From contig BX248583.1 of NCBI GenBank assembly GCA_000043285.1, forward strand, positions 240,001-272,000: a stretch of DNA of 32,000 nucleotides, written 5' to 3'. Positions 979-31,127 of this stretch are shown piece after piece. The first letter of the stretch is position 1. Each line of letters begins with the position of its first letter. Position numbers and translations under genes: made by a program. This stretch comes from Candidatus Blochmanniella floridana. GTDB taxonomy: Bacteria > Pseudomonadota > Gammaproteobacteria > Enterobacterales > Enterobacteriaceae. The notes under the pieces are model-generated. The model searched no databases and had not been told where the DNA came from. It saw nothing but the letters and a program-made list of their open reading frames with translations.

Positions 979-1017
979 TGACTATAATTTATATATTAAA
1001 TATATAAATTATAGTCA
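979..1017 (+). terminator. Perfect 17-bp (18 with the closing t:a pair) inverted repeat 2 nt after the dnaQ stop; candidate intrinsic terminator
   Basis: tgactataatttatata (979-995) is the exact reverse complement of tatataaattatagtca (1001-1017). No clear U-tract follows. Confidence 0.45.
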
Positions 1018-2009: not shown

Positions 2010-2065
2010 GAATACTTGACTAACCACTTGTCTCATAATTGAGACAAGTGGTTAGTCAAGTATTC
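2010..2065. terminator. Perfect 25-bp (26 with the closing pair) inverted repeat between convergent tRNA-Thr and ahpC. The right arm is the ahpC 3' coding end and the stop codon is at the apex. Candidate bidirectional terminator.
   Basis: gaatacttgactaaccacttgtctc (2010-2034) is the exact reverse complement of 2041-2065, checked base by base. The loop is taat. The ahpC stop TGA is the complement of 2033-2035. Confidence 0.55.
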
Positions 2066-2632
2066 TTCTACACTATCTTGAGAAGCATGTAAACCTACTT
2101 TGTTTTGATCCCATTGAGCAGGGCATAGGAGTCCGTGGGTTTCGTTAAATAATAACGCATCTATCATACGAATCATTTCATCAAAATTTCTTCCAAAAGG
2201 CAAATCATTAACAACTTGATGTCGTATTATTCCTAATTTATCTATTAGAAAAGATGCTCTTAATGCTACTCCTTTGTCGGTATGTTCTATACCATAATCT
2301 TTAATAATTTCTCTTTTTATGTCGGATACCATAGGGTATTTTACAGATCCTATTCCTCCTTTATTGATTGGTATTTTTCTCCAAGCATTATGTACGAACA
2401 CAGAATCAATAGAAATTCCAATAATTTCAGTTTCTCTTTTTTGAAATTCAAAATAACGTTTATCGCATGCAATTAATTCTGATGGACAAACAAAAGTAAA
2501 ATCCATAGGCCAAAAAAAGATCATAGCCATTTTATTTTGTATATATTTGAATAAGTTAAAGTCATTAACTATTTCACCATTACCTAGTATTGTAGGAGCA
2601 GTAAAATCTGGAGCTCTATAACTAACTAACAT
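2033..2632 (-). CDS. ahpC: Typical 2-Cys peroxiredoxin (alkyl hydroperoxide reductase C, TsaA/Prx1-like type)
   Basis: 199 aa. Peroxidatic Cys lies in DFTFVCPSE and resolving Cys in HGLLCPAQW. It is collinear end to end with TsaA-type AhpC (about 198-200 aa) rather than the 187-aa E. coli AhpC. An AAGGA SD lies upstream. No ahpF is adjacent. Confidence 0.93.
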   Translation of the reverse strand: MLVSYRAPDFTAPTILGNGEIVNDFNLFKYIQNKMAMIFFWPMDFTFVCPSELIACDKRYFEFQKRETEIIGISIDSVFVHNAWRKIPINKGGIGSVKYPMVSDIKREIIKDYGIEHTDKGVALRASFLIDKLGIIRHQVVNDLPFGRNFDEMIRMIDALLFNETHGLLCPAQWDQNKVGLHASQDSVEEYLTNHLSQL

Positions 2633-2931
2633 AATATTATTCCTTAATGATATATGTGATATATTTATAATGTGTATTTACAATGATATTGTAAACAATT
2701 TTATTGTACTGATGAAATTAATTTTTTGCAAATAACTTGCGATTATTTAATATAAGTTAATTTATTAATATTATTATAGAGATAATTATCTTGTGTTGCT
2801 ATATCTTTAGATGCATAAATGTATAATATTTTTTATAAATGATATAGTTTTTGTAAAAAATGGTTAACTTTTATGAAGTATAAAATATAATATACGTTAT
2901 ATAGTCATGTAACTAGAATGTTTAATACCAG

Positions 2932-3993
2932 ATGCGAACATCAGATTTTAAATTTCAATTACCTAAGAAATTAATTTCCAGGTATCCTAATCTTAAGAGA
3001 AGTGAATGTAGATTGTTAGTATTCGATAGACTAACTACAAAGATAACACATCATTTTTTTTCGGATCTTCCAGAAATATTAAATCCAGGAGATTTATTAA
3101 TATTTAATGATACCCGAGTGATACCAGCAAGATTATATGGGTATTCTGTCACAGGAAAAAAAGTTGAAATTTTAATAGAACGAATATTAAATGATTATCA
3201 AGCTGTTGCTCATATATATTCTTCTGAATTAGTACAATTAGGTGAAAAATTTATATTAGGATCTAATTTAAATATATATATATATGTTATAAAAATATAT
3301 TATAGTTATAAATTGTTTAAAATTTATTTTGATAATATTAATTATAACAATGTATTAAGTTTATTGAATGATATTGGACATATTCCAATTCCACCGTACT
3401 TTCATAGGTTAGATGAAATTATAGATTATGAATTATATCAAACGGTTTATGGATCTAAGTTAGGATCAATTGCTGCTCCAACAGCGGGTTTACATTTTGA
3501 TACATTGTTAATAAATAGATTATTAAATTTAGGTATTGAAATAAGTTTTATTACGTTACATATAGGGTCTGCTACTTTTCAGCCAGTTAGGGTAACATTG
3601 ATTGAACATCATGTTATGCATGATGAGTATATAGAAGTGTCTCAAAGCACAATAGAATCTATTTTAAGATGTAAGGAACGAAAAAATCGTGTAATTGCGG
3701 TTGGAACAACGGTGGTTAAAGCATTAGAAACTGCAGCTATGAATACTAAAAGTTTATCTATTATCGAATCATTTTCTGGTTATTCTCGCATTTTTATTTT
3801 TCCTGGTTATCGTTTTAAGATTGTTGATTCTTTAATTACTAATTTTCATTTACCAGAATCAACATTAATAATGTTAGTAGCAGCATTTGCTGGGTATCGC
3901 AATATACTCAGAGTGTATAATGCAGCTATAGATCTGAATTATAAATTCCTTAGTTATGGAGATTCTATGTTTATTACATGTCGTTCAGAATGA
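2932..3993 (+). CDS. queA: S-adenosylmethionine:tRNA ribosyltransferase-isomerase (queuosine biosynthesis)
   Basis: 353 aa, collinear with E. coli QueA (FNDTRVIPARL, GHIPIPPYF, AAPTAGLHF, TNFHLPESTLIMLVAAFAG, SYGDSMFI). Confidence 0.95.
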   Translation: MRTSDFKFQLPKKLISRYPNLKRSECRLLVFDRLTTKITHHFFSDLPEILNPGDLLIFNDTRVIPARLYGYSVTGKKVEILIERILNDYQAVAHIYSSELVQLGEKFILGSNLNIYIYVIKIYYSYKLFKIYFDNINYNNVLSLLNDIGHIPIPPYFHRLDEIIDYELYQTVYGSKLGSIAAPTAGLHFDTLLINRLLNLGIEISFITLHIGSATFQPVRVTLIEHHVMHDEYIEVSQSTIESILRCKERKNRVIAVGTTVVKALETAAMNTKSLSIIESFSGYSRIFIFPGYRFKIVDSLITNFHLPESTLIMLVAAFAGYRNILRVYNAAIDLNYKFLSYGDSMFITCRSE

Positions 3994-4109
3994 TAGATTA
4001 TACAAAATAATATGTATTTAATAGGTAATGATAACGTTGTTTATTTTATGTCGTTTGTATTTACGGTACATAATATATCAAATAAATATTAATGAATTCG
4101 GATATATAG

Positions 4110-5258
<1,149 letters not shown>

Positions 5259-13479: not shown

Positions 13480-14256
13480 ATAAATTTATTTTATATAAGT
13501 AAAATCAACATTTATATATAATGTATTTAAAATAGAAATAATACTTGTATTATATCTTAAATTTTTTATATATTTTAAGTATTCTGATAATTTATATGTA
13601 AAGGTTGAGCATGAATTTTATTGTTGTATCTAATTTTTAAAGGATATTATTATAATAATTAAAACTAGTGTTAATCAATACATGGAATAAATATACTAGT
13701 TATTTATAGTTATAAACAATTGAATCAGAGTATTATTTATATGTAAGCATGTAGTTTTAAATTTGGAATAGTTAATGTTTAATTATTTATGATTTTTTTA
13801 AAGTATAATTTTAAATTTATATGTGTTTTATTTGGAGTTTGAATAATGAGAATGAAATCGTCTTAATTCGATTTCATGATTATAGAAGAAATTGCATATA
13901 TAAAATTTACTAAATCATTGCTTCAGTTTATATAATTATTGATATGAATATTAATAGATTTTTGTATGTAATGTGATTTTCAAGATATATACAGTATGGG
14001 TTATTGTGGTAGTGAAAATTTATACCTTATACATGATTATAAATATAGATATGTTAAATTATGGTCTATAAAATTTTAATTGAAGTAGATTTGATTATAA
14101 TAAATTTATTTGTTTGTAGTGTTATATTAAGGATTATGGTAAAGAAAATTTGAATAACTGTATTATGTAGATTGTTAATATAATATTTGTTATCGAATTT
14201 GATATATATAGTATTATAAATTAATAAAATTATTTCAATTTTGCAAATATTAATTT

Positions 14257-15735
14257 ATGAATATAATTATTAAGTTTTCTCCTGAAATTATAATAAAGAG
14301 TAAGTCTGTACGAATTTTTTTCATAAAAGTTCTTGTTAAAAATATTCAAATTATTTTAAAAAAACATAATATATTAGTTGCAGTAGTACGTTATTGGGAT
14401 TATCTTGAAATAAAGTGCGAAGATAGTAGTTACTTAAAAATTTCTAAAGTATTAGTTAATGTACCGGGTATTCATCATTTTTTATATGTTCAAGATAGTA
14501 CAGTTTTTTCTTTAGAGGATATTTATCATCAAATTATGTTGGCGAATTGTTGTTCTCGATTATCAGGAAAAACTTTTTGTGTTAGAGTAAAGCGATATGG
14601 AAATCATATTGTTACTTCTCAAGATATTGAACGATATTTGGGTAATAAAATTAATTGTGTTATACAAAATGTACGTGTGAATTTGATTAATCCAGATAAA
14701 ATTATATATTTAGAAATTAAAAATAATCGTTTATTTATAATTGTGAAACGTTATAAAGGATTAGGAGGATTTCCTATTGGTACACAACGAGAGTGTTTAT
14801 CGTTAGTGTCTGGAGGATTTGATTCTGTTGTTTCTAGTTATATGTTAATTCGTCGTGGATGTAAGGTACATTATTGTTTTTTCAATCTCATTGGTGATAT
14901 TAATCATACAATAGAAGTTTATAAAATTGTTTACTATTTATGGAAAAAATTTAGTTATTCTCATAATGTTAAATTTATTTGTGTTAATTTTTCACATGTG
15001 GTTAAGGAATTATTTGTGAAAATACAACCTAACTATGTAGGAATAGTATTGAAGCGATTAATGATTCAGGCTGCATCTTCTATAGCTACTTGTAGAAATA
15101 TTCAGGTATTATCTACAGGAGAAGTATTAGGACAAGTATCTAGTCAAACGTTAGATAACTTAATTTTAATCAATAATATGGTGTCTTTTAATTGTATGAT
15201 ATTAAGGCCATTAATAGCTTATGATAAAGAATCAATTATTGAATTGTCTCGTAAAATAGGTACAGAAGCATTATCCAGAACTATTCCAGAATTTTGTGGT
15301 ATGATTGTAAAAAAATCTAGTACAAAAGTGAGTAAAAAACATATTGAATGGGAAGAAAGTTTTTTAAATTCTTTAATTTTTCAGAAAACTATAGATCAGG
15401 CACATATAATTAATGTATATGATATTTCGAAATTTATATCAAATCAAAGATCATGTTTTTTTGATATAGAAACTAAGACTAAATTAGATTCTCAAGATAT
15501 AATTTTAGATATACGCACAGATTATGAGCAAAAGAAAAATCCGATTCATGTTCCATGTAATGTTCAGGTACAGAAAATACCATTTTATAATTTGATAGAA
15601 TGTTTTCCTAATTTAGATCAAAGTAAAGTGTATGTATTATATTGTGATTATGGTGTAATGAGTCGATTACAAGCAGTACATTTATATCAACAAGGATTTC
15701 GTAATGTCAAAGTATATCGGCTTATTTCGAATTAA
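14257..15735 (+). CDS. thiI: tRNA 4-thiouridine synthase / sulfur carrier ThiI with C-terminal rhodanese domain
   Basis: 492 aa, collinear with E. coli ThiI. It has a THUMP region, the PP-loop SGGFDSVVS, GQVSSQT, and the rhodanese Cys in LYCDYGVMSR. Confidence 0.94.
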   Translation: MNIIIKFSPEIIIKSKSVRIFFIKVLVKNIQIILKKHNILVAVVRYWDYLEIKCEDSSYLKISKVLVNVPGIHHFLYVQDSTVFSLEDIYHQIMLANCCSRLSGKTFCVRVKRYGNHIVTSQDIERYLGNKINCVIQNVRVNLINPDKIIYLEIKNNRLFIIVKRYKGLGGFPIGTQRECLSLVSGGFDSVVSSYMLIRRGCKVHYCFFNLIGDINHTIEVYKIVYYLWKKFSYSHNVKFICVNFSHVVKELFVKIQPNYVGIVLKRLMIQAASSIATCRNIQVLSTGEVLGQVSSQTLDNLILINNMVSFNCMILRPLIAYDKESIIELSRKIGTEALSRTIPEFCGMIVKKSSTKVSKKHIEWEESFLNSLIFQKTIDQAHIINVYDISKFISNQRSCFFDIETKTKLDSQDIILDIRTDYEQKKNPIHVPCNVQVQKIPFYNLIECFPNLDQSKVYVLYCDYGVMSRLQAVHLYQQGFRNVKVYRLISN

Positions 15736-15830
15736 ATACTGTATCGTTATTATATTAAATGGCGTATATAGTGATAATATATTTTTATATTTATATCATA
15801 GCTTTAAAAATAAATAATCATATCGTGTAA

Positions 15831-15915
15831 CATTAATATATTGATAAATACTAAATTACAGCAACCATATTATTAATATGGTTGCTGTAATTTAGTATTT
15901 ATCAATATATTAATG
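15831..15915. terminator. 85-bp perfect palindrome (40-bp arms, 41-bp stem) between convergent thiI and yajR. The right arm is the yajR 3' coding end and the stop codon is at the apex. Candidate bidirectional terminator.
   Basis: 15831-15870 is the exact reverse complement of 15876-15915, with 40 of 40 positions verified one at a time. The yajR stop TAA is the complement of 15873-15875. Confidence 0.5.
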
Positions 15916-17057
15916 GCGGTTAATAATAATATGAATAAAAAAACCAGCCATATATCTTGTATTTCTAATAAAAATCCACCGACTATTCCTCCTAATCCTA
16001 CTCCTAAAAATTGGCCAATAGAATAAATACTTATGGATGTTCCTTTATATTGGGTAGGTGATGTTTTATTGATTAAATAAGGTAAAATTGATTCTATTAA
16101 ATTAAATGATACGAAAAATAATTGCATAGAAAATAAAAATAACCAAAAATTATGTATAGTAATAAACATGATTAGTTCAGATAAAAATAAAATATTTACA
16201 GCAATAATTAACATTTTTTTCCTATGTTTTTTTATGTGAGATAAAAAAATACATGGAAATGAAATAAATATAGAAGTTAATATTACAGCAGCATAAATTT
16301 TATAATGTACATTATATAAATAACCTAGATTAGTGATTATTTTTGGCCAAATTAAAAAATTTAATATTAATACTGTGTGTAAACAAAAAATATGAAAATT
16401 TAATTTAAGTAATTCTGAATGTGTAATGATTAATTTAATATCATTAAATATTTTAAATAAATTTATATTTTTATCTATACAAGAATGTGTTGTGGGTATT
16501 GTAAAATGTACTAACAATATAGTTAATATCGTGATTATAGTAATAATATGAAATAATCCATGAAATCCAAATTTATTCGCTATAAAAGGTCCTGCAATTA
16601 TTGATCCTATAAAGGTAATTCCAAAACTGATGCCGACTATAGCCATAGCTTGCATATGATGTTTTTCTTGTATAGATTCTAATAATAATGCTATTAATAC
16701 ACTTCCAATTGCACTTAATCCTTGTAGCGCTCGACCTATAATAAGACTCCAAATTTCATGTGCTATTGCTATTAGCTCATTGCCTATAACTGATATTATT
16801 AATCCAATGATTACAATGGGTTTTCGCCCAATTTTATCGGATATCAAGCCAAAGGGTAATTGAAAAATTATTTGGGTAATACCGTATATTCCAATAGATA
16901 TGCCTATTAAATATTCACATGATCCTTGTAAAGATTTTGCATACACAGGTAATATTGGTAAAGCCATAAATATCCCTGACATGCGTAATATAAATATTAT
17001 ATTTAATGTTAATATTAACGGAAATTTTGTATGAGATATCTTAACGTTATTATGCAT
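15873..17057 (-). CDS. yajR: MFS transporter, YajR family, lacking the C-terminal cytoplasmic (YAM) domain
   Basis: 394 aa, about 12 TM segments. MFS motif A is GLISDKIGRKP. It is collinear with E. coli YajR up to ...TKLQQPY (E. coli ...TMKEPPY), where it stops. It sits next to cyoE, as in E. coli. Confidence 0.85.
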   Translation of the reverse strand: MHNNVKISHTKFPLILTLNIIFILRMSGIFMALPILPVYAKSLQGSCEYLIGISIGIYGITQIIFQLPFGLISDKIGRKPIVIIGLIISVIGNELIAIAHEIWSLIIGRALQGLSAIGSVLIALLLESIQEKHHMQAMAIVGISFGITFIGSIIAGPFIANKFGFHGLFHIITIITILTILLVHFTIPTTHSCIDKNINLFKIFNDIKLIITHSELLKLNFHIFCLHTVLILNFLIWPKIITNLGYLYNVHYKIYAAVILTSIFISFPCIFLSHIKKHRKKMLIIAVNILFLSELIMFITIHNFWLFLFSMQLFFVSFNLIESILPYLINKTSPTQYKGTSISIYSIGQFLGVGLGGIVGGFLLEIQDIWLVFLFILLLTAINILINTKLQQPY

Positions 17058-27967: not shown

Positions 27968-28006
27968 ATATTTTTTATTTGTAATAAAAATAAATAAAAC
28001 TGAATA

Positions 28007-28034
28007 AATTAATTTAATTAAATTAATTTAATTA
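28007..28034. repeat. Exact tandem duplication of a 14-nt unit (aattaatttaatta x2) in the yqgE-metK spacer
   Basis: 28007-28020 is identical to 28021-28034. Confidence 0.8.
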
Positions 28035-28375
28035 ATAATATAATAATGATTAAAATTATATAATATTTTTATAAATTATATAAATGAATTTTGTAAATAT
28101 TCTTTATGGTAATGGCGTGGTATTAATTGTAATTAATGATATTAATCTATTTTTATAAATACCATAAATTTCTTTAAATTTATATTAATTTTTCTTGACA
28201 ATCAACCCTTATATATAAGAATTCAATGAATATATGTGTTTAAATTTTTATGATTAAACTTTATTTATGATTAGTAAAAATTAATATGATTCATGAAGTA
28301 TGCAGTATTTATAGAAATAATATTTATTATAATATAGAAATAAATAATTCTCTATATTATAATTACTTATTTGTA

Positions 28376-31099: not shown

Positions 31100-31127
31100 A
31101 ATTTTGACTAATGTGTTAGTCAAAATT
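31100..31127 (+). terminator. 12-bp perfect hairpin (aattttgactaa-tgtg-ttagtcaaaatt) in the speB-pgk spacer; weak terminator candidate
   Basis: The arms are exact complements, and the hairpin lies about 55 bp upstream of the pgk start. This stem length is near chance expectation for this base composition. No U-tract follows. Confidence 0.25.

Follow-up and report, generated by a model that had tools for sequence, protein, structure and literature searches.

The 3′ end of yajR in B. floridanus (Candidatus Blochmanniella floridana), a symbiont of carpenter ants, forms one arm of an 85-bp perfect palindrome, located at positions 15831–15915 of the window, the 32,000-nucleotide stretch of the genome analysed here (contig BX248583.1, positions 240,001 to 272,000 of the forward strand). 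The arm carrying the last codons of the gene is ancestral coding DNA, while the other arm is an inverted copy of it, specific to this lineage, and the two were still identical late on the B. floridanus branch. The palindrome most probably arose through one fold-back template switch, as a tolerated inverted duplication that belongs to a known class and may have an effect at the RNA level. It is real, recent and locally made, and represents a well-resolved case of that class.

The palindrome at the end of yajR

A repeat search of the window identified two arms of 42 nt each, 15831–15872 and 15874–15915, which are 100% complementary and have 1 nt between them, the whole (42 + 1 + 42) being centred on position 15873. 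The right arm (15874–15915, minus strand) contains the last 13 codons of yajR (INILINTKLQQPY) followed by the first two bases of the stop codon. The stop codon, TAA, is the complement of positions 15873–15875, and its third base, at 15873, is the symmetry centre. The left arm (15831–15872) is non-coding and is identical to the inverted right arm at 42 of 42 positions.

The yajR gene (Bfl240; 15873–17057, minus strand) encodes an MFS transporter of 394 amino acids, which ends in ...TAINILINTKLQQPY and lacks the C-terminal YAM domain. Its domain matches are to MFS_1, Sugar_tr and MFS_1_like only, and PF21987 is absent. It is convergent with thiI (Bfl239; 14257–15735, plus strand). The remainder of the thiI–yajR spacer, 95 nt at 15736–15830, lies between the thiI stop and the palindrome, which therefore begins 95 nt into the thiI 3′ untranslated region.

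The original prediction, made from the letters of this stretch, described an 85-bp perfect palindrome with a 41-bp stem and a 3-nt apex, the yajR stop codon at the apex and the last 13 residues of the protein in the right arm. Each of these points is confirmed: all 42 arm positions are complementary, folding as RNA yields the same stem and apex, and the coordinates of the open reading frame place the stop codon and the C-terminal residues as described. In the minus-strand (yajR) RNA the fold is a 41-bp stem closed by a 3-nt loop, at −56.8 kcal/mol (z = −12.3), and the plus-strand (thiI) RNA gives the same stem and loop at −57.5 kcal/mol (z = −13.7). The folding energy of 80-nt windows has a mean of −10.0 kcal/mol (sd 3.9), as compared with −47 at the site of the palindrome.

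The view that such a structure is not there by chance is equally well founded. At the base composition of the window the chance of a complementary pair is 0.304, and the probability of such a stem is 2e-22 per centre and about 6e-17 over the whole window. The window was shuffled 60 times with dinucleotides preserved, and the longest perfect stem then had a mean of 10.4 bp and never exceeded 13 bp, against arms of 42 nt in the palindrome.

The G+C content is 23–30% along the window and 19% in the stem, and the GC skew is positive nearly all along. The gene order corresponds to the published ortholog table and comprises dnaQ, gmhA, tRNA-Thr, ahpC, queA, tgt, yajC, secDF, ribD, ribH, nusB, pgpA, dxs, thiI, yajR, cyoEDCBA, clpPX, mutY, ruvX, yqgE, metK and speB. 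Upstream of thiI, the 777-bp dxs–thiI spacer (13480–14256) contains no open reading frame of at least 90 amino acids; ispA (BPEN_245) occupies this place in B. pennsylvanicus and is found there in neither B. floridanus nor B. vafer, and the spacer is probably a scar of gene loss. Exact-protein look-ups with the YajR and ThiI sequences of the window matched no record, and the 29-nt apex sequence had no match among the JGI metagenome contigs.

Polarity and age of the arms

For comparison, the thiI–yajR junctions of five other Blochmannia were obtained by exact-protein look-up. The closest available relative is L021, whose YajR is 80% identical to that of B. floridanus; L022, L023 and L025 come from other sequencing runs, and L024 is B. 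vafer. A Blochmannia YajR profile run over species-representative genomes returned 20 loci, none of which was from Blochmannia.

The sequence orthologous to the right arm is kept as coding sequence in all five relatives (L021–L025), and an inverted repeat over the yajR stop codon was found in none of the five, B. vafer included. In L021, yajR has the same end, ...PY followed directly by the stop codon, only 37 nt lie between the stop codons of the two genes, and there is no palindrome. The spacers of the five relatives measure 37, 38, 44, 161 and 197 nt. When the B. floridanus and L021 junctions are aligned with MAFFT, the right arm alone aligns convincingly, and the alignment of the left side is forced. 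Because the relatives keep the coding arm without the copy, the right arm is ancestral and the left arm was added on the B. floridanus branch. The original prediction had already assigned these roles, taking the right arm as old coding DNA and the left arm as its inverted copy, and it had proposed the alignment of sister-species junctions as a check. The right arm is indeed collinear with the 3′ end of yajR in L021, and the copy is missing from L021 and from the four other Blochmannia alike.

The coding arm differs from the orthologous sequence of L021 at 9 of 42 positions, whereas the two arms of B. floridanus differ from each other at 0 of 42. Over the whole gene, the nucleotide identity of yajR between B. 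floridanus and L021 is 84%, falling to 72% at third codon positions. With 0 differences over 2 × 42 sites, the divergence accumulated since the arms last matched is at most about 0.036 substitutions per site (95%). The contrast between 0/42 and 9/42 dates the identity of the arms as late, and, judging from these substitution counts, the time since they were last identical covers only a short stretch of the B. floridanus branch. The claim of a recent origin thus holds in the form of late arm identity. Loss of the palindrome from the five relatives, instead of its gain in B. floridanus, is a possible alternative because palindromes are prone to deletion.

Palindromes at other gene ends

The window contains three perfect palindromes with arms of at least 19 bp, and their centres lie between −4.5 and +21 nt from a stop codon. 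The two besides that of yajR also go well beyond what chance would give. Like that of yajR, the palindrome of ahpC (Bfl228; 2010–2065, minus strand) is derived from the 3′ coding end of its gene; it is perfect, with 26-nt arms and a 4-nt loop. The palindrome of dnaQ (Bfl225; 979–1017, plus strand), also perfect, with 19-nt arms and 1 nt between them, consists of spacer sequence only and begins 2 nt past the dnaQ stop codon. It was not found at the dnaQ end in three relatives.

The coding arm of the ahpC palindrome encodes the conserved C-terminus ...EEYLTNHLSQL, and the protein is full length. Its stop codon, TGA (complement of 2033–2035), lies inside the inverted copy, and four other Blochmannia have TAA at this point. 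Since the other species examined have TAA, the original ahpC stop codon was replaced by the TGA that the inverted copy brought with it. An independent assembly of B. floridanus (L026; SRR11554989) is identical to the window at 1259 of 1261 positions and reads through the ahpC loop and 10 nt of the copy before it ends. Its differences from window positions 2026–3285, a substitution in queA (position 3038) and an indel of 1 nt in the ahpC–queA spacer, represent strain-level variation. The end of this Logan contig inside the palindrome may be explained by a break of the k-mer (de Bruijn) assembly.

Hairpins at the end of ahpC occur in other lineages as well. In B. vafer (L029, 3583–3615) there is a 15-bp perfect stem with the TAA stop codon as its loop, and in L027 (3060–3125) and L028 (2945–3010) an imperfect stem of about 27 bp is followed by TTCTTTTT. 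No such hairpin was found at the ahpC end in L030 and B. vicinus. There are 22 ahpC coding positions that are paired in both B. floridanus and L027; seven of them differ between the two, and all seven are matched by a complementary change in the non-coding arm. The centres differ among the three ahpC palindromes, and several copying events are therefore needed. The covariation itself requires separate copying events or re-copying, and a chain of single compensatory substitutions cannot have produced it.

The same architecture is found at gmhA of B. vafer (CP002189; L029, 3922–4007), where an 86-bp perfect palindrome (43 + 43, no spacer) is derived from the last 11 codons and the stop codon. 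Its centre is 5.5 nt past the stop codon, and the palindrome lies 59 nt before tRNA-Thr. In L030, queA is split into three ORF fragments (1632–2697) and no gmhA was called between ahpC and dnaQ (3600–4465); these two genes are probably pseudogenes or have been lost. Both coding-derived palindromes of the window are on the minus strand, which is the lagging one by GC skew, and those of B. vafer are on both strands, so no conclusion on strand bias can be drawn.

Long perfect palindromes are present at 3 of the 27 gene ends of the window, and a universal terminator system was rejected on this count. The metK gene adds a near-perfect stem of 15 bp, mismatched at one position and closed by an 8-nt loop (ATTATAATATAGAGA...TTTCTATATTATAAT; about 28326–28363, minus strand), which begins 13 nt past its stop codon and is possibly a weaker example of this class. 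Three further structures were observed. Downstream of speB, at a distance of about 265 nt, there is a perfect stem of 12 bp around a 4-nt loop (AATTTTGACTAA tgtg TTAGTCAAAATT; 31100–31127), which is at the upper edge of the shuffle range, whose maximum is 13. The yqgE–metK spacer (27988–28081) holds overlapping AT-only palindromes, including a perfect 13 + 13 at 28005–28030, and this low-complexity cluster is borderline with respect to chance. Within cyoE of L025, at 634–679, two perfect 19-bp arms lie 8 nt apart in inverted orientation; both of them are coding, unlike in the gene-end cases.

Long palindromes of Blochmannia have been counted before. Williams and Wernegreen (2010; BMC Genomics 11:687, PMC3017870), who required arms of 30 bp or more and allowed up to 3 mismatches and a gap of up to 20, reported 20, 10 and 6 long palindromes in three Blochmannia genomes. 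The 20 of B. floridanus each measure 62–104 bp in total and are nearly all at least partly intergenic, and roles in transcription control or mRNA stability were proposed. The palindromes interrupted both Sanger reads and the Velvet assembly (PMC3017870). The palindrome of yajR, with 42-bp arms, 0 mismatches, a 1-nt gap and an intergenic left arm, falls within that definition. It is the only one in the window to do so, in keeping with a density of about 1 per 35 kb, and by the counts given there it belongs to the roughly 20 long palindromes on record for the genome.

Origin, role and relation to known systems

The proposed origin is a duplication in inverted orientation that took place in the B. 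floridanus lineage once it had separated from its closest available relative. In a single replication template switch, a nascent strand, fresh from copying the end of yajR, would have reversed direction at the stop codon, made a reverse-complement copy of about 42 nt of the yajR 3′ end and then resumed its normal template, leaving an inverted copy directly past the stop codon and an unaltered protein. The same picture would result if an older repeat had decayed and its arms were made uniform again by a later template switch. Template switching can make and keep perfect hairpins (PMC8794818; PMC5941160; PMC5453318), and a perfect repeat favours its own correction (PMC5941160). A fold-back switch is proposed here because the copy is exact and abuts its source, the protein has remained the same, the ahpC copy brought a new TGA, and the complementary changes involve several bases. 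At yajR the copy is the exact reverse complement of the adjoining sequence (42/42), abutting at the stop codon, and L021–L025 keep this source without the copy. In L021 the stop codon is overlain by the short palindromes ATTAAT and TTAATTAA, and such AT palindromes could have served as a seed for the turn. The best local alignment of the L021 spacer with that of B. floridanus falls at the outer end of the left arm and is not significant (p = 0.41), and neither is an 11/12 inverted repeat of L021 itself (p = 0.065).

Long palindromes are attacked by the SbcCD nuclease. The gene tables published for three Blochmannia genomes (PMC3017870) list none of sbcC, sbcD, recA and mutS, and they do list sbcB as well as, in all three, recBCD, rnc (Bfl540 in B. 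floridanus) and rho; of the sbc genes whose absence the original prediction had proposed to check, sbcC and sbcD are thus both missing from the three tables, with just sbcB given. The inverted copy would have persisted because the SbcCD nuclease, RecA and MutS, to judge from these tables, are missing and the structure is tolerated.

The original prediction went a step further and held that a single fold-back gave rise to the palindrome and at the same time removed the YAM-domain codons of yajR, and this part of it fails. In its favour, the protein stops exactly at the ...PY motif, which in free-living relatives stands just before the YAM domain. The homology on which it relied is borne out: the tail ...LQQPY aligns with ...QEPPY or ...RQPPY of full-length YajR proteins, which run on into the YAM domain PF21987, and the homologues from Arsenophonus, Xenorhabdus, Yersinia, Pantoea and Aschnera have 450–458 amino acids with PF21987 present. 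However, all 23 aligned YajR proteins of Blochmannia, from several clades, have 383–417 amino acids, end just past the last transmembrane helix and lack PF21987. As the truncation is genus-wide, and L021 has the same ...PY end with a 37-nt spacer and no palindrome, the truncation predates the palindrome. The arms are, moreover, far younger than the split from L021, and the same layout is seen on full-length ahpC and gmhA, so the palindrome is unrelated to the truncation and does not account for the loss of the C-terminal domain. Comparison of these proteins and junctions indicates that the YAM domain was lost before the genus diversified and that the palindrome is much younger, and a common event is scarcely credible. 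It is also very unlikely that the palindrome is an inverted chimera produced by assembly, cloning or amplification in the deposited genome. Palindromes are known to upset Sanger sequencing and assembly (PMC3017870), but both flanks are collinear with the relatives and the only extra sequence is 42 nt, the ahpC palindrome of the same window is backed by the independent assembly L026 into its copy, and the same architecture is present in B. vafer, where two palindrome-associated gaps are described as confirmed at about 470× and 626× coverage. Insertion of a mobile or dispersed palindromic element (REP/BIME, MITE or RPE-like) at the gene end would explain an AT-rich palindrome at a gene boundary, and yet it has next to no probability: the arm sequence is found nowhere else in the window (with up to 3 mismatches) or in 32 loci, one arm is orthologous coding DNA, and the other palindromes are unrelated in sequence, each being derived from its own gene. 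A mobile element, a known RNA family and a protein-binding site were all rejected as candidates, the sequence being unique and without an Rfam match; the sole Rfam match in the window is tRNA-Thr, which leaves the palindrome without a family.

The remaining rival, a doubtful one, holds that selection maintains the palindrome as a bidirectional transcription terminator or as a 3′ stabiliser of the thiI and yajR mRNAs, its arms being kept perfect by selection, with or without correction by template switching. It accounts for the exact position between convergent genes and for the same very stable hairpin on both strands, and it is in line with the presence of such a palindrome at 2 of the 4 convergent junctions of the window, with the ahpC-end hairpin in 3 of 5 lineages with 7/7 complementary arm changes, and with the TTCTTTTT that follows the ahpC stem in L027. 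Williams and Wernegreen (PMC3017870) also argued that such palindromes would decay without selection; against this, perfection may be kept without selection, since a perfect repeat promotes its own correction (PMC5941160). The junction palindrome is, however, missing in the five relatives, the ahpC hairpin is lacking in L030 and B. vicinus, and rho is listed among the genes of the genome in the published tables. No U-run was found within 0–2 nt past the stem on either side, where the plus strand continues as GCGGTTAATAAT and the minus strand as TTACACGATATG, and the matches reported by a terminator scanner are inner sub-stems whose “tails” are themselves paired. By its sequence the palindrome is not a canonical intrinsic terminator, because there is no U-tract on either side and the stem has 19% G+C; this low G+C content and the restriction of long perfect palindromes to 3 of 27 gene ends also speak against a selected RNA role in general. 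In E. coli, the ribosome represses terminators that lie only a few bases beyond a stop codon (PMC4824070), and by analogy a ribosome at the yajR stop codon would occlude the stem.

An effect at the RNA level is nevertheless plausible alongside the template-switch origin, as transcripts of either convergent gene would fold into the same 41-bp hairpin. On the thiI side, 95 nt past the stop codon, the hairpin could act as a 3′-end barrier against 3′-to-5′ exonucleases and against read-through into yajR antisense, while on the yajR side it would have to be melted by translation. A barrier role for the thiI transcripts is plausible from the folding model, and it is the most plausible of the roles because the stem is free to form in the 3′ untranslated region, whereas the yajR arm is translated. 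The 41-bp stem is also longer than the perfect double-stranded RNA of at least about 20 bp expected of an RNase III substrate, and rnc (Bfl540) is in the gene tables, so that the stem is a putative target of this enzyme. That the palindrome has a selected function is conceivable, at somewhat less than an even chance. The alternative, a tolerated and self-perpetuating by-product, fits equally well, because the palindromes turn over between species and perfect repeats are self-correcting.

It is also possible, though rather unlikely, that the gene-end hairpins of Blochmannia are kept in repair by re-copying, the non-coding arm being rewritten again and again, through template switching, from the drifting coding arm. 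The best hint is the ahpC hairpin, which in three lineages has different centres and whose 7/7 changes are mirrored between the arms. If this were so, replication error would be a renewable source of perfect 3′-end structures, such as terminators, exonuclease barriers and RNase III sites, in a genome where signals of this kind are otherwise eroded. In a sharper version, RNase III would cut the yajR stem, which has the stop codon in its loop, producing a non-stop mRNA and a tuned output of YajR.

The junction provides a clean natural case in which the polarity of a palindrome-forming event is directly readable, from a constrained coding arm common to the relatives as opposed to a dated, lineage-specific copy. 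The recurrence at ahpC and gmhA, together with a non-coding arm that follows the coding changes, suggests that whole stems are written and rewritten in single steps in a repair-poor endosymbiont. This bears on the origin of RNA hairpins, on the survival of long palindromes without SbcCD and on 3′-end signals in reduced genomes. In practice, such palindromes break de Bruijn-graph assemblies at gene ends. The parts most worth pursuing are the recurrent layout of gene end and mirror image, and the arm covariation of ahpC.

The accessible portion of the earlier survey of Blochmannia palindromes (PMC3017870) gives counts and lengths; it contains no mention of an arm formed by a coding end or of a stop codon at the apex, and states neither which arm is derived nor that the palindromes turn over between species. 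The closest parallel in mechanism is template switching and quasi-palindrome correction (Ripley 1982; the Lovett laboratory; Loytynoja and Goldman 2017, PMC5453318; Monttinen and Loytynoja 2022, PMC8794818; Lavi et al. 2018, PMC5941160), in which a single event yields a perfect stem and later events re-homogenise the arms, and the 7/7 changes of ahpC are the footprint these papers describe. Unlike in those systems, the template here is the end of a protein-coding gene, the copy starts at the stop codon, and the arms are 26–43 bp long as opposed to RNA stems or short repeats of 2–10 bp; the mechanism in Blochmannia is deduced from the products.

Like intrinsic and bidirectional terminators, the palindrome forms a stable stem-loop just past a gene and between convergent genes, and the inverted repeats of E. 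coli are concentrated immediately after stop codons and scarce within coding regions (PMC6060812). It differs from them in its stem of 41 bp with 19% G+C, as opposed to 5–15 bp and G+C-rich, in having no flanking U-tract (or A-tract and U-tract), and in that its 5′ arm is inside the coding region. The coding palindromes of Nematomorpha mitochondria (PMC6649704), whose genome is likewise small and AT-rich, are also long perfect inverted repeats over protein-coding sequence; in that case both arms code, whereas here one arm codes and the other is spacer. With REP/BIME and RPE elements the palindrome shares a position at a gene boundary and the potential to stabilise the upstream mRNA, but those form multi-copy families with a common consensus, while the palindrome of yajR is unique and locally derived.
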